The notes under the pieces were generated by a model that saw only the letters and a list, made by a program, of their open reading frames with translations, was not told where the DNA came from and did no database searches. A program made the translations under genes and the position numbers. A stretch of 64,000 bases of DNA, taken from contig JAANOX010000037.1 of NCBI GenBank assembly GCA_020184695.1, forward strand, positions 336,267 to 400,266, written 5' to 3'. The stretch is from Histomonas meleagridis 2922-C6/04-290x (lineage: Eukaryota; Protista; Parabasalia). Each line of letters begins with the position of its first letter. Position 1 is the stretch's first letter. Below are positions 2,004-64,000 of the stretch, piece after piece.

Positions 2004-3134
2004 TTACATGAAGTCAAACAGCGTTGTGCTTCTTAAGTTTTTCTTTTTCTTTGATTTCTCTTCAGATTTCACATTTATCACAGGCACAAATTCCATTTCA
2101 TATTCGCCTTCGACTGCTTTATATTCAGATGTCCATAGTTGCGTAGTTTTATCATCTGAACACGACACAATTGTATCGAACGATTCTTTATTCCATTCGA
2201 CGCACGTTGCAGCAGATGTATGACAAATGAAAACTTGCGGCGTTTCATTCTGCCCAACCTTAAACACATTTAATGCGCCTGACGATGACCCTGTTAATAA
2301 GTACCTCGAGCACGGACTGAAACAACAGCGTATGTAAAAGGATCCGACGTTTGGCCAATGCTGAGTTACGTAACAAAAGTCATTATCGAGAGAATAAAAT
2401 GTGATATAGCTATTAGTAGAGATAGAGGCGAGGATCTTATGGTTGGGTGATATGCTTAGAGAGGAAATTGGAACACGAGCGTTCTGTTCTGGGATTGAAA
2501 TTGGAAACGGTTTTTTAAGATTGCGAGAATCCCAACAAAGAAGCTCACCATGACTATCAGATGTGAAGAAATACGTCGGTGATGCAGAGGCAATGGAAAG
2601 AATGGATGGTTGGGATTTTAATTGGATATATGAAATGGGATCTTTTTGACGATAATCCCAAAGATAAACACTCCCATCACGACCGCCTGATAAAACATTG
2701 TCGCCAAGATTGGAAAGACAAAGAACAGTTCCGAGATGTTTAATGTATGATTTGATAGGAACGCATTTTTGAACATCAATAAAAATCACAGACTGCTCTC
2801 CAGTACCAACTACAATAATATTCGAATTATTGAGAAAAACAAGATCGAAAATTGAATTATCAACAACTGAAAATGAATCAACGCTATAAATAGGTTTTTG
2901 TTGTTGCAATGCTTCCTGTCCTCTGACAAATGAAATTTCTCCTTCTTCTCCTGCAATTGCAAGGAAAAGAAATTCATGAGGAGAAAATTTGGCAACATAA
3001 GGGCGAATCAAAGTCACTTCTTCATTAAATTTCGGGATAACAAAGCGAGATGCTGGTGTAAAATCAATAGAATATTGGTATGCTATTGCTCTTCCCGTTA
3101 TTAATGCAGATGGACTTGGTATGTTTTCTCTCAA
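2004..3134 (-). CDS. CDT2: CDT2/DTL-like WD40 substrate receptor (CRL4 DCAF); start codon unresolved
   Basis: LAIAGEEGEI, NSIFDLVF, LSGGRDGSVYLWD and SFYIRCCFSPCSRYLLTGSS match DTL/CDT2 blades; the C-terminal TTLFDF is PIP-like. The ORF begins at TTG and has no in-frame ATG until near the end. Confidence 0.75.
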   Translation of the reverse strand: MRENIPSPSALITGRAIAYQYSIDFTPASRFVIPKFNEEVTLIRPYVAKFSPHEFLFLAIAGEEGEISFVRGQEALQQQKPIYSVDSFSVVDNSIFDLVFLNNSNIIVVGTGEQSVIFIDVQKCVPIKSYIKHLGTVLCLSNLGDNVLSGGRDGSVYLWDYRQKDPISYIQLKSQPSILSIASASPTYFFTSDSHGELLCWDSRNLKKPFPISIPEQNARVPISSLSISPNHKILASISTNSYITFYSLDNDFCYVTQHWPNVGSFYIRCCFSPCSRYLLTGSSSGALNVFKVGQNETPQVFICHTSAATCVEWNKESFDTIVSCSDDKTTQLWTSEYKAVEGEYEMEFVPVINVKSEEKSKKKKNLRSTTLFDFM

Positions 3135-3503
3135 TAGAGGCTGAATACAAAAGGAAAAGTGACAGATCTAGAATAAAAATTTCAACATGTTGTCCTATAA
3201 ATTTCCAATAATACAATGCTAGCTACAACAAAATGCAATGCCTTTTTGGTCTCAAATCGAAATATATGCTTGTAGCTTTGAGTAAGAAGAAATCTTACAA
3301 ATTGATAAAGAGAAAAGTCAGGAATTTTTGATTCAGTTTTCAGGCAAAATAAAATTTGCTTGTTTACACTGTCAATAATTGTGTTTATATAGATAATATC
3401 TCAGTGTTTCTCTGAAAACTTCAAAATTTTGAGATGAAATGACCAGATTTAATCAGAATATTATTTCCAAAAAGATTAAAATGAATTTTTTAATTAAACT
3501 TGA

Positions 3504-37302: not shown

Positions 37303-38575
37303 TAGGGGGTGGAAAAAGTCCGTTCGTCAGCTGATTTATATTAGATATTAATGAAATCAAATTATATAAATAAAATTTATAATAAATATATTATCATTAT
37401 TATGATAATACTTTTTTCCAAGTAAATATGATGCATGAAGTAAAACTACTTTTTTTCATGATACCCTCGAAAAAGAACGTTTAATCATTTAAATGTCAGT
37501 TCCAATTGAGGAATTACGTTCTGTTGTCCATTTTCTTTAGTTAGAATCAAATGAAAATCAAGACATATATAGGCGATTATGTGCTGTATATGGTGATAAT
37601 ATTATTACACTTCGAACAGTTCAGAAATGGACAAAAAAGATGAATGAACATACCTTCTCAATTTTCGAACAGAAAAAAACAGGGAGACCAAGAAGATCAG
37701 ATTTAGATCAAAGAATAACCAGTTTTATATTAAGTTATCCATATGCATCGACGAAGAAAAATTGCGAAGAATGTAGGCGCAGATCCAAAAAAACAGTGAA
37801 AAAAATATAATGATTAATATTTTAGGGATGAAAAAAGTTAACTTCAAATGGATCCCACATAAGTTGACTCCAGAAATTAAAGCCAAAAGAGCTGCCATTG
37901 CTTCTGAATTATTTGAATTCCATTCTAGTTCAAATGACTACAGACTAAGACACATATTGACGCAAGATGAAACCTGGATTTATTTTGTTAACGGGAGAAA
38001 CTCGATGTGGATTGAATCTGGAGTGCAAAAACCATACAAACCCAAACAACCTATTGCCTCCAAAAAAGTAATGATATCTGTTATATGGTCTATAACTGGT
38101 ATCAAATCAATAACAATGCTCCCGTTAGGCCAAAAATTTAATCGAATTTTTTTTCTGAAGTTGTACTTGGAGATTTGGCAAAAAGAATTTCAACGAAGGG
38201 ATATTTTTTGCATATGGATAACGTACGGCCTCATTTGGTTCATGAAAAATTGAATGAATCGGGGATTAAAAGACTTCCGCAACCCTCGTTTTCGCCAGAC
38301 CTCGCACATTCTGACTTTTTTCTGTTCGGATATCTAAAAAAAATGCTCGAATATGAGGAGTTTGAAAATGAAGATCAACTTTTTCAAAAGGTCGAAACAT
38401 TACTGTATAATATTCCTAAAGACATCTTCAAAGCCGTATATAATGAATGGATGAACAGACTTTTAATTACAATTGAAACTCAAGGTGAATACACATCATA
38501 ATAAATAAACAAAATTTCTTTTACTTTTTTATTCATTAAAAAAAAGGCTGACGAACGCACTTTTTCCACCCCCTA
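37303..38575 (+). mobile_element. Complete Tc1/mariner (mariner-like) DNA transposon, 1273 bp, decayed
   Basis: 29-bp TIRs TAGGGGGTGGAAAAAGT(C/G)CGTTCGTCAGC at 37303-37331 and 38547-38575 with one mismatch; TA on both sides (TATA makes the exact end ambiguous by 2 bp). Confidence 0.95.
37493..38501 (+). pseudogene. Mariner transposase pseudogene (DD31D)
   Basis: N-terminal HTH (LCAVYG...RTVQKW, GRPR), WIPHKLT, TQDETW, HMDNVRPH and FSPDLAHSDFFLF; TAG at codon 16 and frameshifts near 37760-37810 and 38155. Confidence 0.93.
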
Positions 38576-38782: not shown

Positions 38783-40012
38783 TTATACATCAGATAAACT
38801 TCCAGATTTTGACCAAAACTTCTTGTATACAATAGCTCCCACAACAGCACCAAGAGCTACGATAACTACAACCACAACTCCGATTATTAGACCTGTTTTC
38901 GAACTTTTATTCTCATCAGAAGAAGCTGTAGGGACATCAGAAATATTCGTAGAAGGTTTTCCTGTGTCTTTGTGCTCGGTTTTTTCTGGTTCATCTGGAT
39001 CAGAAGTCGCTATATAAGGATCAAATGTATTATCTTCTTTTGCCTCTCCCATTACTTTTTCAGGAATATCATCAGTATTTAAGAAATTCTTTGATTTTGG
39101 GGATGCTATAAGATTTATTTTTAATTTCGAATCTTCCCATTTATTTTTATCGAATTCAAATTTAACAACAGGAGCTCCTGTTGTTGAGAAATAATTATCC
39201 TTTACCACAATATCCATATCATCAGGATCTAAAAAGCCAAAAAGAATTGAAGAGAAAGGATCATCAAAATGTATATCTATTGTAGAATCTTCTTTACAAT
39301 TCTTTTCTAAAGTCATTTTAATTTGTGAATCAACTTTTGACGAAAATGGACTAACAACAATACCAACATTATCTTTATAATTGATTGGACGTGATTCAAG
39401 CAAAAATTTCTCTTCATCAACTTTGATTTCTAGAGGTGGTAATAAATAAAGTTGTTTTTGTGTAGCTTCTATATTTTTGAAACTATCATCATTTGATTTT
39501 GTGATAACTCTATTAGATTTAACTTTTCCACCTTCAAATGAAGAAACAAAAATTGTGTCAGCTGTAAAATCTCCATCGAAAATAGTATGACTATTAAAAA
39601 CAATGGTAGGAATTGTTTTTGATACATCTGCACTTTTTACATATAAGTTTGTGGATGAACCGAGAATATGAATTCCTAATTTTGGAATTGATACTTTAGA
39701 AAGATCAAGAACATTATTCTTGTTATCTTCTAAAATAAGTATAGCTGCTGATTTGGCGCCAGAAAGATCTTGATCAATATTACTTAAGTCTTTCAATTCT
39801 TTGTTAATAGAGATTTTTTCACATGTATCAACAAATGATTTAACTTTTTTACATTTTTCATCATCTCCCTTATCTTTGCAATTAGAATCATATTGTTCCA
39901 TTAATTTGGTTATAATGGGATTCGCATTTTTTTCCCCTCCATAAAGAATTATTCTATGATTGGGTTTCTCTTTTTCATCGCATATGATTGAATAGATGAA
40001 AAGAAGAATCAT
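38783..40012 (-). CDS. Type I single-pass surface protein, uncharacterised family (tandem paralogue 1)
   Basis: MILLFIYSIICD leader, C-terminal TM (LIIGVVVVVIVALGAVVGAIVY), tail ending LSDV. Confidence 0.8.
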   Translation of the reverse strand: MILLFIYSIICDEKEKPNHRIILYGGEKNANPIITKLMEQYDSNCKDKGDDEKCKKVKSFVDTCEKISINKELKDLSNIDQDLSGAKSAAILILEDNKNNVLDLSKVSIPKLGIHILGSSTNLYVKSADVSKTIPTIVFNSHTIFDGDFTADTIFVSSFEGGKVKSNRVITKSNDDSFKNIEATQKQLYLLPPLEIKVDEEKFLLESRPINYKDNVGIVVSPFSSKVDSQIKMTLEKNCKEDSTIDIHFDDPFSSILFGFLDPDDMDIVVKDNYFSTTGAPVVKFEFDKNKWEDSKLKINLIASPKSKNFLNTDDIPEKVMGEAKEDNTFDPYIATSDPDEPEKTEHKDTGKPSTNISDVPTASSDENKSSKTGLIIGVVVVVIVALGAVVGAIVYKKFWSKSGSLSDV

Positions 40013-40831
40013 TAAAAATGAAATGATGAGATAGTTTTTTTATAAAAAAAACATTATTTTTATACGAAAAAACCCCACAGAAATTTTTATGTTGGTTATT
40101 TTTGTTGATTTTTTATATGATTAAGTTCAACACCAATATTTACTTTGATGTATGTGAATATATTTTATTAAATATACAATGAAATATTTTGTTTTGCTTT
40201 TTATGTGGTTTTAAATAAGCTTGAGAATTAACATTATATCATACAATTAAATTAGTTTAAAATGAGATATTATATATATATATTGACGCATCATTTTAAC
40301 ATTCATAAAGATATCTTATTTGATTTAACCTTAAAAATTAAGGTCAATATGTTAATATACTAATTAAATGATGTATTTTATATATTTTTATTGCTAACTT
40401 TATTATGGAGTAATATAAAATTTAATAAATAACATCAATAATATAATAAAGAATCAGAATCTTTTAATTTAATAAAAAAAAAATCCTCATATTTATTATA
40501 TCATAAATATTTATTTTATTATAAAAAATGAACTTTTATATCAAACTTGATAGGATTACATACAACTGTTTAACATCTCAGGAGGAGCTGTCTTACATAA
40601 GGAAAATAATTCAGGGCCTCTCCTGCAGAACCCCTCTAAATTGCATACAAGGTACTCACCATCCTGGAATAAATTTCTCCCCTTATGATTACTGTTTACA
40701 CCTCTCAAAATGCCATTCTACAACCATACACTCCGTTCCTTATTCTTCACTCTGGCCAAAAAAAATCTTTTTTAACACATTATCAAATTATTCAAAGCTC
40801 AAAACAAATTTTTAAATAATTAATGATGTTT

Positions 40832-42196
40832 TTATACATCAGAGATGTTCTTAGGCGTTTTTTGAAGATTCTTAGATACAACGATTATCAAAGCAATAAC
40901 AATTACTACTGCAGCCCCTACAGCGGCAGCAATAATCACAATATTGTTTTTGCTCTTTTCTTTATTTTCTTCATGACTTGGTTCGTCAGTTTTTCCTGGT
41001 TGTTTTGATTCAGGACTTTCAGTTTCTTTTTGATCAGTTTTTTCTGGTTGTTTTGATTCAGGACTTTCAGTTTCCTTTTGATCTGATTTTTCTGGTTTGT
41101 CAGGTTCAGGACTTTCAGTTTCCTTTTGATCTGATTTTTCTGGTTTGTCAGGTTCAGGACTTTCAGTTTCCTTATGATCTGGGTCATCTGGCACAAATTT
41201 TGAATCTCCTTCAAAAGTTCGATCTTCCTTGAATTCACCTAATACATCTTTATGAAGAGTGTTGATATCCAGCAAAGTACTAGTTTTTGATGTTGTTATT
41301 ATATTTATTTTTAATTTAGAATTTACCCATTTACTATTATCAAATGCAAATTTAATTTTAGGAGTATCTACAGAAGCAAAATAACCATCATTCATTAAAA
41401 CATCGAATTCATCAGGTTCTAAATAACTATAACAAAGTGTAGTGAAAGGATCTTCAATAAATATGTTTATTACAGAATTTTCTTTACAATTACTTGCTAA
41501 GGTTACTTTAATAACTCTATCCTCATATGGATTAAGAAGAATACCAACATCATCTTTATATTTAAAAGAATATTTTCTAACTCCATTACTATATTGATTC
41601 GCAATTTCATAATGATCTTCATTTATAATAATTTCAATCGGATTTGTAAAGATATATTGTCTTTTCGTTGTCACTACGTCTTTATTATCAGGTTCTCCAA
41701 TATAACGATTAGCTTTCACGTTCCCCTGTGTTCCAATTGCATAAATCTGATCTACCACAAAAGTACCACTAGTAACCGAAACAATATTTTTTAATGCAAT
41801 TACTGGAATTGTTTTAGATATGTCAGCATTTTTAATTAGCGTAGTAAAACCTAAATTGTAAATACCTAATTTTGGGATCGTAACTTTCGATAAATCAAAG
41901 GTAATGGGGTGGTCCATATCTTCCACATATATTACTGCTGACTCAATACCAGAAAGATCATTAGCAAGGTTACTTAATTCATTTGCACCTTTATAAAAAA
42001 TGATTGATTTGCTTTTGAAAATAATTGAATTGCCTTTATCACATTTTCTATCACTTGTTTTCCCCTTGCAATAAGATTCATGATGTTTCATGAAGTTATC
42101 TAGATGTGGAGGGATATATTTGGATTGTCCATAATAAAAAATCGCATGCTTGGGCTTCTTATCACATATGATTGAAGGAATGAATAGAAGAATCAT
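40832..42196 (-). CDS. Type I single-pass surface protein, uncharacterised family (tandem paralogue 2)
   Basis: MILLFIPSIICD leader, collinear similarity to paralogue 1, a repeat stalk, TM and tail ending ISDV. Confidence 0.8.
   Translation of the reverse strand: MILLFIPSIICDKKPKHAIFYYGQSKYIPPHLDNFMKHHESYCKGKTSDRKCDKGNSIIFKSKSIIFYKGANELSNLANDLSGIESAVIYVEDMDHPITFDLSKVTIPKLGIYNLGFTTLIKNADISKTIPVIALKNIVSVTSGTFVVDQIYAIGTQGNVKANRYIGEPDNKDVVTTKRQYIFTNPIEIIINEDHYEIANQYSNGVRKYSFKYKDDVGILLNPYEDRVIKVTLASNCKENSVINIFIEDPFTTLCYSYLEPDEFDVLMNDGYFASVDTPKIKFAFDNSKWVNSKLKINIITTSKTSTLLDINTLHKDVLGEFKEDRTFEGDSKFVPDDPDHKETESPEPDKPEKSDQKETESPEPDKPEKSDQKETESPESKQPEKTDQKETESPESKQPGKTDEPSHEENKEKSKNNIVIIAAAVGAAVVIVIALIIVVSKNLQKTPKNISDV
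40979..41170 (-). repeat. Coding 48-bp tandem repeat x4 (ETESPE[PD/SK].PEK[S/T]DQK)
   Basis: Two ETESPEPDKPEKSDQK and two ETESPESKQP units immediately before the TM. Confidence 0.9.
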
Positions 42197-50140: not shown

Positions 50141-52400
50141 ATGGAAAACAAATTAAAAATGTGAATCAGATTAATAAATGAAAAACAAATTAATAAAAGT
50201 GAAACAAATTAATAAAAATGTGAATCAGATTAATAAAAGTGAAACAAATTAATAAAAATGTGAATCAGATTAATAAATGAAAAACAAATTAATAAAAGTG
50301 AAACAAATTAATAAAAATGTGAATCAGATTAATAAAAGTGAAACAAATTAATAAAAGTGAAACAAATTAATAAAAGTGAATCAGATTAATAAAAGTGAAA
50401 CAAATTAATAAAAGTGAAACAAATTAATAAAAATGTGAATCAGATTAATAAAAGTGAAACAAATTAATAAAAGTGAAACAAATTAATAAAAGTGAATCAG
50501 ATTAATAAAAGTGAAACAAATTAATAAAAGTGAATCAGATTAATAAATGTGAAACAAATTAATAAAAGTGAAACAAATTAATAAAAATGTGAATCAGATT
50601 AATAAAAGTGAAACAAATTAATAAAAGTGAAACAAATTAATAAAAATGTGAATCAGATTAATAAAAGTGAAACAAATTAATAAAAGTGAAACAAATTAAT
50701 AAAAGTGAAACAAATTAATAAAAGTGAAACAAATTAATAAAAGTGAAACAAATTAATAAAAGTGAAACAAATTAATAAAAAGTGAAACAAATTAAAAAAA
50801 AAGTGAATCAGATTAATAAATGAAAAACAAATTAATAAAAGTGAAACAAATTAATAAAAATGTGAATCAGATTAATAAAAGTGAAACAAATTAATAAAAG
50901 TGAAACAAATTAATAAAAGTGAAACAAATTAATAAAAGTGAAACAAATTAATAAAAGTGAATCAGATTAATAAATGTGAAACAAATTAATAAAAGTGAAA
51001 CAAATTAATAAAAATGTGAATCAGATTAATAAAAAGTGAAACAAATTAATAAAAAGTGAAACAAATTAATAAAAAATGAAACAAAATAATAAAAAGTGAA
51101 ACAAATTAATAAAAAGAAAAAAAAAAAAAAAAAAGTGAAACAAATTAATAAAAGTGAAACAAATTAATAAAAGTGAAACAAATTAATAAAAGTGAAACAA
51201 ATTAATAAAAGTGAAACAAATTAATAAAAGTGAAACAAATTAATAAAAGTGAATCAGATTAATAAATGTGAAACAAATTAATAAAAGTGAAACAAATTAA
51301 TAAAAAAATGTGAATCAGATTAATAAAAAGTGAAACAAATTAATAAAAAGTGAAACAAATTAATAAAAAGTGAAACAAATTAATAAAAAAATGTGAATCA
51401 GATTAATAAAAAGTGAAACAAATTAATAAAAGTGAAACAAATTAATAAAAAGTGAATCAGATTAATAAATGTGAAACAAATTAATAAAAAGTGAAACAAA
51501 TTAATAAAAAAATGTGAATCAGATTAATAAAAAGTGAAACAAATTAATAAAAAGTGAAACAAATTAATAAAAGTGAAACAAAATAAAAAAAAGAGAAACA
51601 AATTAATAAAAGTGAAACAAATTAAAAAAAGTGAAACAAATTAATAAAAGTGAAACAAATTAATAAAAGTGAAACAAATTAATAAAAGTGAAACAAATTA
51701 ATAAAAGTGAAACAAATTAATAAAAGTGAATCAGATTAATAAATGTGAAACAAATTAATAAAAGTGAAACAAATTAATAAAAATGTGAATCAGATTAATA
51801 AAAGTGAAACAAATTAATAAAAGTGAAACAAATTAATAAAAGTGAAACAAATTAATAAAAATGTGAATCAGATTAATAAAAGTGAAACAAATTAATAAAA
51901 GTGAAACAAATTAATAAAAGTGAATCAGATTAATAAATGTGAAACAAATTAATAAAAGTGAAACAAATTAATAAAAATGTGAATCAGATTAATAAAAGTG
52001 AAACAAATTAATAAAAGTGAAACAAATTAATAAAAGTGAAACAAATTAATAAAAGTGAAACAAATTAATAAAAGTGAAACAAATTAATAAAAGTGAAACA
52101 AATTAATAAAAGTGAAACAAATTAATAAAAGTGAAACAAATTAATAAAAGTGAAACAAATTAATAAAAGTGAAACAAATTAATAAAAATGTGAATCAGAT
52201 TAATAAATGAAAAACAAATTAATAAAAGTGAAACAAATTAATAAAAATGTGAATCAGATTAATAAAAGTGAAACAAATTAATAAAAGTGAAACAAATTAA
52301 TAAAAGTGAAACAAATTAATAAAAGTGAAACAAATTAAAAATGTGAATCAGATTAATAAATGTGAAACAAATTAATAAAAAAGTGAAACAATTTACTTAT
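50141..52400. repeat. ~2.25 kb non-coding satellite of a 19-bp monomer (GTGAAACAAATTAATAAAA) with interspersed variant GTGAATCAGATTAATAAA(A); about 115-120 units
   Basis: Period 19 is read directly (e.g. 52021-52180); strongly A-rich on the plus strand; degenerate monomers continue to about 52590. Confidence 0.97.
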
Positions 52401-52784: not shown

Positions 52785-53249
52785 ATGCAATCTTTGGTGA
52801 AAATTGTTGATGGCGACATATGTAATGCAAAAGAAAAGTACATTGTCCATCAATGCAATTGTGTTTCAAAAGGCGCTCGTGGAGTCGCCCAAACAATTTT
52901 CAAGAAATTTCCATACTCAAATGTATACGCACAGAGAACTAAACATGATGTTCCTGGAACTATTAAAATTTGTGGAAATGGGGTTGATAAGAGATTTATT
53001 ATTGCTCTATTTGGGCAATATGGATGGGGAAAACCAGATAACAAAAATGATTCACCTGAAAAGAGACTCAATTTCTTTAAGTCTGGCCTTGGGAAAATTG
53101 CCCAAATTCCTAATCTTGAAAGTGTAGCTTTTCCTTACTTAGTCGGATGCGCCTCAGCTGGAGGAAATTGGGAACTCTATCTTCAAGAAATAGAAACGTT
53201 CGCAGCAATAACGCAAGTCCCAGTTGTCTTATACAGATACAATCCATAA
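52785..53249 (+). CDS. Macrodomain protein (Poa1p/OARD1-like ADP-ribose binding or hydrolase)
   Basis: GDI......YIVHQCNC.S..A.GVA..I...FP, IIALFGQY..G, SVAFPY.VGCASAGGNW. Confidence 0.85.
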   Translation: MQSLVKIVDGDICNAKEKYIVHQCNCVSKGARGVAQTIFKKFPYSNVYAQRTKHDVPGTIKICGNGVDKRFIIALFGQYGWGKPDNKNDSPEKRLNFFKSGLGKIAQIPNLESVAFPYLVGCASAGGNWELYLQEIETFAAITQVPVVLYRYNP

Positions 53250-57349: not shown

Positions 57350-60300
57350 TTAATATTTTGCATCCGAGCTTAAGCTTTCGTCATCACTTTCCGAGCTACT
57401 ACTTAACGTGAACAAATCGTCTTCGGAGTTACTCTCATTTTCTTTTCTAATTCTTTTATTTACTTCCTCCAGTATCAATTGGGCGTCTTTTTTACTGTAT
57501 ACTTTTAATATATCTGCGTTTTCCACCAAAATATTTAAATCGTTTTTCAAAGATATTTCGGTGGTGTACCAATGATTCTTTAATCTATCTCTGAACAACG
57601 TTAAATCCATTGGTTGTTTTGCGTTTCCTATTAAAATTCTTTGAGATTTTCCATCTCTCACATATATCATATTTGTTATTTCTTTTTTTCCACTATTAAT
57701 CAAATCATTAATATAAACATATAACTCATCCATTAACATATTTAACTTAACATCTATTTCAACAGTTTCATCTTCATTAATTATTTCCCATGGAACTAAA
57801 TAACAAATTGAATTATCATCTATAAACTTTACTTCGATTGATGACCACGGATCATTTTTATAATTCTTATTAATACTAATAATAATTGCTTCGAATTCTT
57901 TTGTGTTTCCATTATCTTCTTGAAATTCCGCTTTAATATGATCATTAACTTTAAGTGTTTCACAATATTTAATACTTTTATTATATATTTCTTCTCGTAT
58001 TATAAATGGTGGAGTTTCTGGTATTGGATAAGCTATAGTTGCTTCGAAGTCTTTAAACCTTAAAAATAATATTAAATGTGTTATATAAAATTGGATGTTA
58101 ATGATAGTGGCAATTGTTACATCAGGTAAATTACGTTGGATTTCATATGGCGTTCGATAATGCATATAATTACAGATTTGTTTATATTCTTGATGACCTT
58201 TCCGTACATATATTATCCGTTCGCCAATTTGTGGTATATATGTATGACGAATTCGAACACTATTAAATACCCAATTTGGAAGTATTTCATTAATAACTGT
58301 TTCGTTTTCATTAGATGATGTCGATGACGATGCTGTCGAACTATAATAATATTCTTCTTCTGTACTATGTAATGATTGTTCTTCTGAACTTTGCGTATAT
58401 TCAAAATCACTTGATACAATTGATGATGTACTTGATGATTCATACATAGAAATAGTATCAGATGTATCAGAACTAATAAATTTGGATTTCCGCGTTTGTT
58501 TTTTGGCGTTTTTCTTCTTCTTTGGTTTGTATCCCATGACAAAATCAGATGATTCATCAGATGATTCAACTTTCTTCTTCTTCTTGTTCTTAGGCTTAGG
58601 TGGAGGTGTCGGATTAGTTTTCTTTTTTCGTTTTGGCTTATACCCAATTACAAAATCAGATGATTCATCAGATGATTCAACTTTCTTCTTCTTTTTCTTA
58701 TTTTCTTTTTTAATGTCGTCGATAATAAAATCAGATTTTATAGTTTCAACGAAATCTTCTTCAATGAATTCATCATCATCATCTTCATATGTATTATTTC
58801 TTTTACTTTTCTTATTAGAACCTAAATCATCATCAATGAAATCGTTGAGATCATCATCGTCATCCTTAAATAACTTTGACGAATTTTTTTTTGTTTTTCT
58901 TTTCTTAGTTTTCTTCTTTTTCTTATTCTGAGGATGCTGTTGATATTGTGATAAGTTTTCATCATTTTCTTTCTCTTCGTTCTCTTCATTCTCATTAAAG
59001 AATTCTTCATCTTCGTTATTAGGTTTTAATAATATATATTCACTAATTTCATTTGTAATTCTATCTTCTTCTTCGATAACATTATTAGGAATAATTTTTT
59101 GCTTAATATCAATTCGAATATTAGTTAAATCAAATCGTTTTGGTTGTGGATTTAATGGATTCCCAATTTTATCAACAATTTGACAATAACTCGATGGTTC
59201 TTCACCTTCTTCAAATAGTTCTGTTTCGAAGAATTGTTCCATATAAGGGATTTGTTCTTGTTTGATTTTGTCATTCCGTAAGCCAAACATTGTTATACCG
59301 CCATTACTATCTGCTGCAAATATATATTGTCCATCACGTGACCATGTGACTTCAACAATATGGTACTCTTCATAAGGTAATAATACATTGATAAGATCTC
59401 CTGTTATTATGTCCCATAATGATGCACGACCGTTACGCGTTGTCACAATTATAATGTTTGGAATTTGAGGATGTGGTCGAATTATTGTTGGATGATCTGT
59501 AAGTTCAGGATGTGATATAATGATTTTGTTGATAAATGTTTGCGTTTCCCATACTAGAATACAATCTGATGATAATCCGATTATACAACTTTCATCACAA
59601 TTAAATGAAGCATTACATACTCGAGCTTTGACCCCGCGAGATGTTTTGGCCGAAAGAAGTTTAGGATCAGACCAATTCCCATTTTTATATTGCCAAAATT
59701 TTATGTTTCGTTCTTTTTGTGAAAATGATATAATTCGTTGACATGAAATCTGACTAAAAAAAACAAAATCTGGGAGACGCGAATGTCCTTTGAGAATTAA
59801 TACTTCATGTGTTATAAGTGATGCTACTTGAACAATATTTGGCTCCCCTGAACAAACAATAAATTCACCGCCTGGACTAAAGCTAAGCCATGCAAACCCT
59901 TTTTTGTTTTTGGAATAAAAAGAAAATAATTCATTCCCTTCAGAAAGTGCGTCGGCAACTTTCCAAACCGTTACACATCCTTCCTCACAGGCTGCCCCAA
60001 GATAACGGCCGCAAGGCGAAAACTTCAATGAGTGAACTTCACCGTTTTTCCGAAGCCGATTTAATAAAGTGCCTTTTTTTAGATCAACAATACAGATACA
60101 ATGGTCATGTGAAGATGAAGCAAAGTATTGGTTTGATGGATGAATTGAAATATCAGTGATAACATTTTCATGAATTTTTAATGTTTTTAAGAGAATTAAT
60201 TCAGGTATTTTCCAAATCTTAAGCTTGAAGTCATCAGAACCTGAGATTAGGATTTGAGATGTGAAATCAATTGCAATACAATATATATCATCAAAATGTC

Positions 60301-60676
60301 CAACCACTCTTGTATAAGGCCCAAATTTTTTAATAGGTAAAATTGGTTCCCCAATGTTATAGAATAAGCCGGTTGTGTTACTTATTGATTTTTTGTTTTC
60401 TTGTGTTGGATTTGATAATAGCGATGATTGATTTGATTGTTCACAAAAGTTTGAAATAAGCCTTATGAGCTGATCATCTGGAACTCCTTTGAAAGAGTTT
60501 TTGAGTTGAGCAAAAGAACTATTGTGAGAAAATAATCCTGATGGAAAAAGATTCCTTTGTTCGCATTCGTGAATAAAAGAGTCACCAATTGATGGAAATT
60601 CAAGTTTTAAGAAGTTTGCTAGAATGAAGAGTAGCTCACTCCTTTGGTTGGAATTCAAAATGTGAATTGGCTCCAA
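57350..60676 (-). CDS. BRWD/PHIP-like WD40 protein with a degenerate bromodomain; start unresolved (possibly ATG at 60716)
   Basis: SELLFILANFL N-terminal motif, WD40 blades, YIPQIGERIIY.RKGHQEY (PHIP-like) and PMDL..F.DRL.N.WY bromodomain remnant. Confidence 0.78.
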   Translation of the reverse strand: MEPIHILNSNQRSELLFILANFLKLEFPSIGDSFIHECEQRNLFPSGLFSHNSSFAQLKNSFKGVPDDQLIRLISNFCEQSNQSSLLSNPTQENKKSISNTTGLFYNIGEPILPIKKFGPYTRVVGHFDDIYCIAIDFTSQILISGSDDFKLKIWKIPELILLKTLKIHENVITDISIHPSNQYFASSSHDHCICIVDLKKGTLLNRLRKNGEVHSLKFSPCGRYLGAACEEGCVTVWKVADALSEGNELFSFYSKNKKGFAWLSFSPGGEFIVCSGEPNIVQVASLITHEVLILKGHSRLPDFVFFSQISCQRIISFSQKERNIKFWQYKNGNWSDPKLLSAKTSRGVKARVCNASFNCDESCIIGLSSDCILVWETQTFINKIIISHPELTDHPTIIRPHPQIPNIIIVTTRNGRASLWDIITGDLINVLLPYEEYHIVEVTWSRDGQYIFAADSNGGITMFGLRNDKIKQEQIPYMEQFFETELFEEGEEPSSYCQIVDKIGNPLNPQPKRFDLTNIRIDIKQKIIPNNVIEEEDRITNEISEYILLKPNNEDEEFFNENEENEEKENDENLSQYQQHPQNKKKKKTKKRKTKKNSSKLFKDDDDDLNDFIDDDLGSNKKSKRNNTYEDDDDEFIEEDFVETIKSDFIIDDIKKENKKKKKKVESSDESSDFVIGYKPKRKKKTNPTPPPKPKNKKKKKVESSDESSDFVMGYKPKKKKNAKKQTRKSKFISSDTSDTISMYESSSTSSIVSSDFEYTQSSEEQSLHSTEEEYYYSSTASSSTSSNENETVINEILPNWVFNSVRIRHTYIPQIGERIIYVRKGHQEYKQICNYMHYRTPYEIQRNLPDVTIATIINIQFYITHLILFLRFKDFEATIAYPIPETPPFIIREEIYNKSIKYCETLKVNDHIKAEFQEDNGNTKEFEAIIISINKNYKNDPWSSIEVKFIDDNSICYLVPWEIINEDETVEIDVKLNMLMDELYVYINDLINSGKKEITNMIYVRDGKSQRILIGNAKQPMDLTLFRDRLKNHWYTTEISLKNDLNILVENADILKVYSKKDAQLILEEVNKRIRKENESNSEDDLFTLSSSSESDDESLSSDAKY

Positions 60677-60899
60677 AATCCTATTTCAAAACGTGCCTGT
60701 TCTTCAAAAGTGACATCACCTGGGGCTGCCCATTTTTTTGTCAGATATTCGCTGTTTATGATGTTAGTACGTTAAAACGTCACTTTTTAATACTTCAGAT
60801 TAAAAATATCACAAACTCATCCCAAAAATCGTATGACCAAATATCAATTCAAAAGTCATTTCAACGAAACGAGAGTGGTTGCTGGTAGGTATATAATGC

Positions 60900-60976
60900 G
60901 GTCGGGAATGATCACGAGGACCCTAGGGGCCCCGCCGGGGGCGGGGCCCCTAGGGTCCTCGTGATCATTCCCGACC
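60900..60976. repeat. Perfect 37-bp inverted repeat with a 3-nt loop (GGG)
   Basis: GGTCGGGAATGATCACGAGGACCCTAGGGGCCCCGCC (60900-60936) is the exact reverse complement of 60940-60976; about 70% GC. Confidence 0.99.
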
Positions 60977-61359
60977 TTAAGTTTTCACTGGGGGGATTTC
61001 CGGGGTCTTCGGCCTCCGGAGGTGCCCTTCGAACCTCCGAGGCCTCAGACCTCCAACTCTCGAGTGTGCTCGCCCAGCTCGCCACAAAAATCAAAATGAA
61101 TTTTGTGAGCCATACAATTCGTCTGAAAATTTGAATGCGCATTCAATTTTGAGAGAACGCGAAACTTTTTGATAGGAACGATAGCACTTTTAGCACCACT
61201 TTTCGCATAAACCTATCAAAAACCTCACATAACCAACACGAATTGTCCTCGGTTATCTTTGGTCGGACATTTATTTTATTCAATTTATCTTTGCCAGGAG
61301 GTTAATAGTCAAAAAACGACGGTTATTGTTTGGTCTCATGGCAAACTTTATTTTTATAA

Positions 61360-61701
61360 ATGCTTAAACCTGTAACTAAAACGTATTTTTGTACTTCACA
61401 AAAAGAAAACCGTTTTCCGCCTGAATTTGTGGATTCTCAAAATCCTAGATATATAGTAGTACAACAATGTAAGTGTAAATTTAAGGAATATTTAGTATCT
61501 GATGTTTCAATGCATGCTGATTTCATTGAACGTGATCATTATGAAGATTATTTTTGTATTTATACGAATGAAAATAAAACTAAATATAAGAAATATGAAT
61601 ATAAAAGTAGAAAACCAAATTTTAAAATATGGTTTAAAGAAATGAATGGTAAAGAAATTGAACCAGAATATTTTATGTTAGAATTATTATTAATTTATTA
61701 A
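61360..61701 (+). CDS. Small beta-rich protein, putative minor capsid (penton)-like protein
   Basis: Alternating beta-strand pattern ending FKIWFKEMNGKEIEPEYFMLELLLIY, reminiscent of Polinton penton C-termini; by recollection only, not searched. Confidence 0.45.
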   Translation: MLKPVTKTYFCTSQKENRFPPEFVDSQNPRYIVVQQCKCKFKEYLVSDVSMHADFIERDHYEDYFCIYTNENKTKYKKYEYKSRKPNFKIWFKEMNGKEIEPEYFMLELLLIY

Positions 61702-61721
61702 ATAAAAATCATTTTTTATCA

Positions 61722-63659
61722 ATGTTTAGTATTGAGAATGCTACGAAAGGTATAAAAACTAATGTTATTGCTGCTCCTGAAATTATTGACCAAGATGACT
61801 TACAAAAAGTTTTAGAAAATTATTCTACAAATGATCAAATAACAGAAAAACTTAATACTATAACTTCGATTACAATCCCACAATTATATTATAATAAATC
61901 GCAATCAGATGAAAAATATTCTACAAAAAGTCATACTCATAATACAATAAATAATGATCTAACAGTAAATGGGAATGTACAAGTTACTTCATTAAATGGT
62001 TTTCAATTATCAACAGCAAAAGGTGGTAAATGGGATACAAAATTATATGTTCCAGCTATTATCACATTAAAAGAAGATGGTGTTGTAGAAGTTGGACAAT
62101 ATATTGATATGCATTATAATGCAGATTACGATACAGATAATACATGGAGAATAACTGCTAATACTAATTCATTAGATTTTAAATCAAAAACTGGAACATT
62201 ATTAAGTTTTGGTAGTAATGGCAATATTCAATGTGCATCTATAAATAATGTAGATACATCTGAAATATCTTTAAATGATCATAATCATGATGAGATTTAT
62301 GCTAAAAAAGATCATGAACATGTAAACTATGCTTCATCAGATCATACTCATAGTTATACTGATTTAAATGATAAATCACAGTCATTTCCACCTTCAGATC
62401 ATACTCATAGTTATAATGATTTAACTGATAAACCTGAAACATTTCCACCTTCAGAACATACCCATAGTTATAATGATTTAACTGATAAACCTGAAAAATT
62501 TCACCCTCAGAACATACACATGAAGAGTATGCTTCAAAAAGATCATAATCATGATACAAAAATATGCTGCAAACAAATCATACACATAGTTATAATGATT
62601 TAACAGATATTCCTACAGGTTCAAATACAGAAGATATTCATTGTTCAACAATTAATGGTTTTGCTCTAAATTCGGGACCTTCAGCTTCAAATTTAGATAT
62701 TAGTGTTCCTTCAATTGCAGTTATTAAAAACGATGGTGTTTTAGAAACAGGTCCTTACATAGATATGCATACTAGTGATGGATATGAAAATGATTATAGT
62801 TGGAGAATACAATGTATTGAAGATGATATAGCATTTAAACCAAAACAAGGAAATGGTTTTCATTACTCCTCATCTTTTGATGCAATAGGTTGTAATATAA
62901 TAGTTTGTAGTGAAATTATGTACTCTGTAAAAACTAATGGCATTGTTAATACAGGAAATATAAAATCCGATACTGGACAATTCACTAGTTTAGAATCTAC
63001 TAAATTAACTTTATTTCACAGTATAATTGAAGAATCAGGTAATACATATCAATTATTATGGAGAATTTATGGATGTACACCTACTGCAGATAAAAAATAT
63101 GGAAGATTATATTTTGAATCTGTAACACAAAAGAAACAAAATGATGGTACCTTTTCTGATACATATAGTAAAATATATTATATTGCAACTACATTTAATA
63201 CATTCGAAGGAACTGGAGGTCTTGCACAAATAAATACAACTATTATTCATAATGCTCCTGTTTCAGAAGACTTAACACAATTATCAAATTGGTTCACCTG
63301 TATTTTTAACAGGTAATGTTTATGCTATAACTAATGAAGGTAAATATGTTACAAATACTTCATCAACTGATTGTATTCCATCAGTTAAAACAACAGGTAC
63401 ATATAAAAAATATTTAGGTATTTGTGTAGCTAAACATGAAAATGGTTATAAAGCTTCAATAGGTGATGTTATTAGAAGAGAAGTAAAAATTTTACAAGAT
63501 ACTATTGATTTTGCTACACATGGAGATTTTTATTTTAGAGTAAATAATACTGCAGATTATGAAATTGGTGATGTAGTATTATTTGATGGTAATAAATCAT
63601 CAGATGATTTAGTAATAACTACTAAATATAGATGTGAGCTTAGAAAGAACAACAGATGA
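61722..63659 (+). pseudogene. Frameshifted phage-tail-fibre-like gene (about 645 codons when restored; possibly intact if the indels are assembly errors)
   Basis: ORFs 61722-62603, 62564-63316 and an unlisted frame (about 63287-63659, IGSPVFLTGNVY...TDCIPSVK...DFATHGDFYFRV...EIGDVVLFDG) join after removing one -1 and four +1 indels. Confidence 0.75.
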
Positions 63660-63924
63660 TCAATTTAAATATAAACGATTTGACGATTATAAGCAATTTG
63701 AATATAATTTTATCAAACTTTTTATCAAAACTGAAAAAATTACACTCATTAATGGAAAAATTGGAAGAAAAACAATTCCAGAGCATTACGAATATTATAT
63801 CAGAACGATTATCAAAAAATTGAATGAGATGTTTGCACGCAAAGTTTTTGAAGCTAAAAAAAAGCCTCTCAAATTTAATAAATATTGTGAAGAATTAAGG
63901 AATTATAATATTTATGAATTCTAA
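63634..63924 (+). CDS. Hypothetical ORF (GTG start), basic/aromatic, unknown
   Basis: 96-codon open frame overlapping the fibre stop; no motif recognised. Confidence 0.2.
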   Translation: MSLERTTDDQFKYKRFDDYKQFEYNFIKLFIKTEKITLINGKIGRKTIPEHYEYYIRTIIKKLNEMFARKVFEAKKKPLKFNKYCEELRNYNIYEF

Positions 63925-64000
63925 GAATTCACCTTATATTAACACAGGTTTTCAAATCTCGTTCGAAAAACAAATATTTACTTTGAGTAACTATTGACTT

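Follow-up and report, generated by a model that had tools for sequence, protein, structure and literature searches.

The stretch analysed here, called the window below, comprises 64,000 nucleotides (64 kb) of contig JAANOX010000037.1 of Histomonas meleagridis 2922-C6/04-290x and consists of intron-poor parabasalid DNA with a GC content of 25-38%. Its last part, from position 60884 onwards, carries two co-oriented open reading frames (ORFs), at 61360-61701 and from 61722, which lie only 20 bp apart, as a first-pass annotation of the same DNA had noted. They encode a predicted penton-like protein and a likely fibre. We are highly confident that this part is the end of a Polinton, i.e., the left end of a many-copy integrated Polinton-like virus (PLV) of the Metamonada group. 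Its host is likely H. meleagridis, since fibre homologues with 77-94% identity bear that name. The features of the locus are listed here; depths refer to contigs of four public short-read DNA runs (two samples of one study), among them the runs X1, X2, and X3.

57350-60661, minus strand: host gene with WD40 repeats (Pfam WD40, E 8e-21), the single-copy flank; its start codon is not fixed
60779-60861: fragment of a different, low-copy repeat immediately outside the element (summed depth 2,000-8,000; loose ends behind 60861)
60884-60899, plus strand: element terminus, first 16 bases, placed by flank divergence and a step in depth (first base 60883 or 60884)
60900-60976: perfect 37-bp hairpin, likely inside a terminal inverted repeat; an inverted repeat spanned by contigs from other copies
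60988-61080: second GC-rich, imperfect stem-loop cluster, recognised by its fold and more variable among copies (dip in depth and indels at 61028-61069)
61347-61362, plus strand: start motif T[CT]ATTTT before the penton ATG, with a second copy before the fibre ATG at 61722
61360-61701, plus strand: minimal single-jelly-roll penton (minor capsid protein) of 113 amino acids (aa), assigned from predicted fold and gene order
61722-63626, plus strand: fibre gene, truncated at 63626 and split into three reading-frame pieces, 87-94% identical to P0102, a protein named H. meleagridis 'minor tail protein'
62070-62153 (first) and 62726-62809 (second), plus strand: 'YIDMH' modules (repeat D4), common to a giant-virus fibre
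62277-62614, plus strand: histidine-rich 19-residue repeats of phage-tail type, likely the shaft (57-nt repeats; PHROG tail families, E 4e-9 to 1e-3)
63230-63626, plus strand: C-terminal domain predicted to be like phage cement proteins and the C-terminal fragment of phi29 gp12 (Pfam Phage_cement E 0.019, below cut-off)
63627-64000: other many-copy DNA, joined at 63626, with loose ends on both sides and depths of 41,000-124,000 in X1 and X2

The element end and the penton-like gene

The WD40 gene is covered by contigs of X1 and X2 at a depth of 470-670 with 0 differences. At 60884 contigs continue into unlike flanks (11 in X1, 7 + 5 in X2; agreement ~0.5) and the summed contig depth rises from ~2,000-2,500 to >100,000. 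Because the 11 contigs of X1 enter differing flanks at this position, the element has a fixed end with many insertion sites, as is characteristic of Mavericks/Polintons. The switch from the flank of a host gene to GC-rich palindromic DNA described in the first-pass annotation is, therefore, real, with its start now placed at 60883 or 60884 and the host gene recognised as a WD40-repeat gene on the minus strand. The same annotation had proposed to count the copies: their number is at least tens, since one element contig of X3 alone has a depth of 215, compared to 3.8-6.3 for host contigs. Summed contig depth (up to 300,000 versus ~600) was rejected as a measure of copy number because overlapping short contigs inflate the sum. 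This magnitude agrees with the supplement of PMC10120064, where two H. meleagridis assemblies appear with 61 and 72 capsid genes belonging to two clusters. Among the contigs listed none bridges 60808-60884, where the low-copy repeat intervenes, and the join of this element copy to the WD40 gene consequently rests on the window's own assembly. In the many-copy DNA past 63626 a 98-codon open frame (63628-63921) has no relative in the 53 loci discussed below and 0 matches among 1.84 billion representatives.

The AF2 model of the 113-aa protein (pLDDT 84.9) is a single jelly roll, and its best match in VIA is the mavirus penton (Z 6.9, rmsd 3.0, 102 aligned). The top five, described as tied, further contain two PBCV-1 capsid chains, an EhV-201 capsid chain, and a fowl adenovirus chain. 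The Z score is middling for the assignment as the single-jelly-roll minor capsid protein of a Maverick/Polinton, and gene order backs it. The Foldseek comparison suggested earlier gave no match at E <= 0.001, neither for this model nor for that of the fibre domain; for a penton homologue Atlas provided no usable match. There are 15 homologues of 102-129 aa. A penton homologue carries the name Methanobrevibacter smithii, likely through misbinning. The GC content at third codon positions (GC3) is 0.12 for the penton ORF and 0.07, 0.08, and 0.00 for the fibre pieces, versus 0.17-0.35 (median 0.26) for 26 host ORFs, in agreement with the earlier remark that codons of the element end in A or T more often than those of host genes. 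The stretch 63285-63626 is a run of 114 codons without G or C at the third position.

Relatives were examined in 53 fetched loci from metagenomes (L numbers), 49 of which are fibre loci, including three that are not Polintons. A penton homologue (52-60% identity) occurs in 11 of the 53. In 8 of these 11 loci it lies directly between a gene of a 540-aa family, the putative major capsid protein of Metamonada type, and the fibre gene, and in 10 of 11 it adjoins a gene of this family, which the window lacks. This order, together with the jelly-roll model and the VIA matches, bears out the penton-like gene of the first-pass annotation. BLAST clustering and visual comparison suggest a link between this putative capsid family and a published capsid protein of H. 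meleagridis: the N-terminus of one subtype reads like that of the structurally confirmed capsid protein in Table S3 of PMC10120064. Among the best 120 of 501 matches of the capsid search none was named, and the matching H. meleagridis capsid gene was not among them. In locus L033 there follow genes of the integrase and ATPase families, and pPolB (E 7e-40). Two of four integrase-family proteins of relatives match Pfam rve at E 2e-4, below cut-off, and share 28% identity over 155 aa with the L033 gene; the ATPase of L020 matches Pox_A32 (E 2e-6), and the L033 member of the same cluster is without a Pfam match. Some relatives carry a DUF5906 primase-helicase-like gene where others have pPolB. The terminus with its many flanks, the penton fold, and these core genes in relatives support the view, already expressed in the first-pass annotation, that the window contains the end of an endogenous PLV. 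Taken alone, the locus is an unremarkable representative of a group already published, and the Metamonada group itself remains unplaced (10.64898/2026.06.19.733378).

The relatives are diverse. At least three kinds of Metamonada-type Polintons (L005-L040, L044, L047, L048, L050-L053) occur in metagenomes, many of them titled human gut, and we presume that Dientamoeba may be their host. Related elements swap replication genes, i.e., DUF5906 primase-helicase-like versus pPolB (L020:10715-13504, L016:5708-7135, L033:14080-16785), and in L044 a deoxynucleotide monophosphate kinase gene (2598-3224; E 7e-12) lies between penton and fibre. One capsid sequence is present on 438 contigs, and four Polinton loci sit within bacterial metagenome-assembled genome records, likely due to misbinning. 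Five scans of viral contigs (with the penton alignment, the fibre, the fibre C-terminus, the capsid, and the giant-virus ATPase) returned no relative and no complete two-ended element.

A likely fibre and a proposed start motif common to a giant virus

Fibre homologues are found on six H. meleagridis contigs of 31-544 kb, and the full-length fibres on record for this species measure 638-660 aa. Intact homologues match no Pfam family at cut-off. The C-terminal domain, modelled for the homologue L002 (pLDDT 64), reaches a VIA Z of <=5.4 versus phage cement proteins and the C-terminal fragment of phi29 gp12.

The same type of C-terminus is encoded at locus L004 beside TFIIS (E 3e-15), a class-V aminotransferase/NifS (E 4e-17), a 387-aa ATPase, and a WLM-like peptidase. 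Proteins of the L004 type have been recorded from as many as 307 contigs, of which the longest measure 128-134 kb, and the cluster of the 664-aa fibre (P0336) has a member on a contig of 87,432 bp, the same longest size as that of members of two L004 gene clusters. TFIIS, the ATPase, the contig sizes, and the gut residence of the clade suggest that the giant virus represented by L001, L003, and L004 is likely an egovirus, the last point because the preprint 10.1101/2024.03.23.586382 calls egoviruses the only clade of this kind that is consistently found in the gut. The likely egovirus DNA (L004:1-10497, L001:1136-3130, L003:221-2212) has a Polinton-like fibre gene and tandem repeats between genes. 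L001 joins giant-virus DNA to a bacterial-looking Usp gene and is probably a chimera. The label Rpb6 for L004 9276-9761 was rejected, having no Pfam or PDB support.

Between L003 and the window the 'YIDMH' module is 42% identical over 62 aa (E 2e-10). The C-terminal domain of the giant-virus fibre scores 199-204 bits against P0102; the best Polinton locus scores 206 and the next 193. L003 is 99% identical to L004 over 498 bases, and its identity profile was determined against three Polinton fibre genes (L017, L020, and L048), to which ~250 bases (1534-1783) are 94-100% identical per 50 bases; beyond, identity falls to 64-88%. The final part of this near-identical segment is also carried by L004, a separate contig. 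This profile indicates that the giant virus and Polintons exchanged a fibre module recently. A tree of 25 distinct fibre C-terminal domains gives no direction of transfer.

A second feature common to both viruses is the motif T[CT]ATTTT within 25 bases of the ATG. It precedes 6 of 9 giant-virus genes (shuffle mean 0.7; 0/300 shuffles reach the count), 36 of 87 distinct Polinton starts (shuffle mean 8.2; 0/300), and both element genes of the window (2/2), compared to 2 of 26 host genes (shuffle mean 1.2; 98/300). The counts leave out nine ORF families that were presumed to be antisense shadows, which in the case of family 6, the integrase, was an error; one giant-virus start was placed at the second Met. 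The initiator-like HCAHW showed no enrichment relative to shuffles in any of the three gene sets (host, Polinton, and giant virus). A TAAATG start, which we take to be poxvirus-type, was seen at 26 of 89 starts in the elements, compared to 3 of 26 in the host; neither the count nor the label was relied upon. A TATTT motif is named among promoters of nucleocytoplasmic large DNA viruses (PMC11788076).

Satellite, autonomous element, or remnant

The fibre homology and the start motif point weakly to a virophage-like satellite. We consider the chances about even that the element works as a satellite of an egovirus-type giant virus, and dependence on such a helper is, taken by itself, roughly as likely as its absence. 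Egoviruses have been linked to Parabasalia, have given polintons KilA, and occur in chicken gut (10.1101/2024.03.23.586382). A satellite of this kind would be inserted by its rve integrase, its penton pentamers would hold trimeric fibres at the capsid vertices, the RNA polymerase of the giant virus would read the AT-only start motif, and co-infection of one cell would let both viruses swap fibre modules. Transcription by a co-infecting giant virus has, in our estimate, an about equal chance of being right or wrong, and transcription by the host is possible at a level somewhat below that.

Several observations weigh against the satellite reading. The near-identical swap concerns metagenome Polintons and not the window, and the tree does not settle whether the Histomonas fibre is nearer to that of the giant virus (89/71 support). 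The motif was picked after the data had been viewed and is AT-only; only 8 of the 24 Polinton families have it at most of their starts, and it precedes none of six penton starts in the loci. The 87 Polinton upstream strings are related to each other, the host control derives from the window's host and not from that of the loci, and the TCATTT form also fits the host initiator HCAHW. The penton Z is below 8, in addition to the Foldseek result mentioned above, and the window, which stops at 64000, contains no capsid, polymerase, or integrase genes, no second end, and no target duplication. Furthermore, relatives have a pPolB or primase-helicase of their own, and this is equally compatible with autonomy.

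An alternative is an autonomous endogenous Polinton of identical anatomy that spreads by itself and relies on host polymerase II, which would start transcription at an initiator-like motif; the common fibre would then reflect only gene exchange with a giant virus of the same host. We regard this as possible, if short of probable. It agrees with the presence of an integrase in addition to pPolB or the primase-helicase in relatives, with the fit of the fibre start motif to HCAHW, and with the thousands of copies reached by elements of Trichomonas vaginalis. However, it is T[CT]ATTTT and not HCAHW that shows enrichment, and it does so at the gene starts of both viral sets but not of the host; in addition, the extreme A/T-ending codons differ from those of the host.

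A different possibility is that this copy, perhaps the subfamily, has lost the ability to form virions and is a defective remnant, which we consider improbable. The fibre is not one ORF, as the first reading had it, but consists of pieces at 61722-62561, 62495-63283, and 63282-63626; the last 23 residues of the intact homologue P0102 are missing, and the gene is joined at 63626 to other many-copy DNA. This state, and the lack of a capsid gene upstream of the penton, unlike in 8 of 11 relatives, would suit a remnant. At 63283, however, the entire short-read depth of the four runs disagrees with the window, as it does at several substitutions. Because no short-read depth supports the window's version there, at least some of the breaks are likely assembly errors, and artefacts of such a kind have been described (PMC10120064). 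The full-length fibres on record for H. meleagridis also argue against a defective family. The cut at 63626 may be real.

The first-pass annotation had interpreted the terminal palindromes as a fold-back structure. The hairpin has perfect arms of 37 nt each (60900-60936 and 60940-60976), a loop of 3 nt, and 71% GC, and is the sole perfect stem >14 bp in the window; the region 60884-61200 folds with a z of -11.2, and 0 of 100 shuffles are equally stable. Short-read contigs from other copies extend across the two arms, so that the hairpin did not arise artificially through fold-back of long reads. It starts 16 bases inside the element end, with unlike sequence on either side, and consequently is subterminal and no fold-back telomere. 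Capture of the end of a linear virus whose hairpin telomere is covalently closed is for this reason very improbable, in spite of the perfect and GC-rich stem and of a few contigs that carry the loop in reverse-complement form (depth 1,262 of ~77,000 in X1). The inverted loop amounts to <2% of the depth and not half, so that neither a fold-back at the very end nor equal flip and flop forms were found; 16 conserved bases lie outside the hairpin, its two sides are unlike, and relatives use pPolB and an integrase. Paired changes at 60920/60956 were not counted as covariation, because a contig can lie on either arm. At the likely ends of the 53 loci, most of which stop before the element ends, there was no perfect stem >=14 bp and none like the window end. 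In an integrated Polinton the hairpin would act as an end signal in replication or integration; we found no published account of it in the literature searched.

The fibre had also been described as built from bacteriophage modules, possibly acquired from gut phages. Repeats of phage type are indeed present, but phage similarity is confined to them: among the best 30 tblastn rows matches cover <=22% of the fibre (the histidine-rich repeats), 0 of 382 phage records cover 80% of it, and 348 of the 382 are Streptomyces, Mycobacterium, or Arthrobacter phages, with actinophages as the best matches, which does not favour an origin from gut phages. At the DNA level blastn against 50,697 phage records gave no match, so that neither the DNA nor the whole protein matches a tailed phage. 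A chimeric join with contaminant phage DNA near 60880, suggested by the phage-like repeats, by a phage chimera reported in one H. meleagridis assembly, and by the lack of a listed contig bridging 60808-60884, is largely refuted and has hardly any probability left in view of the blastn result, the many flanks at a single point, the homologues on six H. meleagridis contigs of 31-544 kb, and a penton fold of eukaryotic-virus type.

Comparison with known elements

Both the element class in H. meleagridis and a fibre with phage-type repeats have already been published. Metamonada-group Maverick-Polintons and PLVs (PMC10120064) come from the same host group and have the capsid family that is linked to the window penton in relatives; the main text of that paper does not mention penton, fiber, or hairpin, whereas here penton and fibre stand at the element end and no capsid gene precedes them. 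The earlier suggestion that a phage-repeat fibre was new to parabasalids does not hold, as such fibres are reported for 20 T. vaginalis elements (PMC12220804). Those likewise are parabasalid PLV fibres with repeats of phage-tail type, but are composed of collagen and PF12789 repeats, in contrast to the 'YIDMH' modules and the cement-like C-terminal domain, common to a giant virus, found here. Vertebrate Mavericks (PMC8097293) have terminal inverted repeats, pPolB, an rve integrase, and capsid genes; their end motifs, (AGT)2 or (AG)3, have no exact match here, and no hairpin or palindrome features in the text of PMC8097293 consulted.

Virophages and PLVs that depend on giant viruses (mavirus/EMALE, Gezel-14T, and Tetraselmis PLVs) are also integrated and AT-rich, with a start motif that, as proposed here, is common to the giant virus; they differ in capsid family and the present host is an anaerobe of the gut, with dependence here only proposed. 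Their late promoters are common with those of the giant virus. Egoviruses (10.1101/2024.03.23.586382) are giant viruses of the gut that have ties to Parabasalia and engage in gene exchange with polintons, as seen here, but compared to the KilA transfer the exchange reported here is recent, given the near-identical DNA, and concerns a structural gene. The main text of this preprint does not contain fiber (in that spelling), promoter, virophage, or Histomonas, although its supplements may list the gene. No published account of a fibre or promoter common to egoviruses and parabasalid Polintons was found in the literature searched. The novelty is thus carried by the giant-virus link, which lies outside the window.

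Elsewhere the window contains a tandem array of 115 copies of a 19-bp AT-rich unit (50146-52395), next to which lies a stand-alone macrodomain-like gene (52785-53249; E 0.002, below cut-off). A fragment of a mariner-type transposase is present at 37600-38253 (Pfam Transposase_1, E 2e-6), and at 38783-42196 two tandem signal-peptide genes with similar starts and a GC3 of 0.17-0.18 possibly encode surface proteins.

The genome paper of H. meleagridis reports 0.23% interspersed repeats, 20% duplication, and no Maverick; the element family may account for part of this 20%. In a wider sense the findings bear on the reasons for the abundance of Polintons in trichomonad genomes and on the question of virion formation by these elements. 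That parabasalid Polintons, including the Histomonas family, are egovirus satellites which use a giant-virus promoter, trade host-attachment fibre modules at present, and perhaps protect gut parasites of poultry and humans as a heritable defence against viruses is, as a whole, a tentative and rather unlikely scenario. A fibre and start motif common to a gut giant virus would name the helper, which is testable with egovirus genomes and gut metatranscriptomes, and the presence of a near-identical fibre segment in the two viruses would constitute evidence, at the sequence level, for infection of parabasalids by egoviruses.

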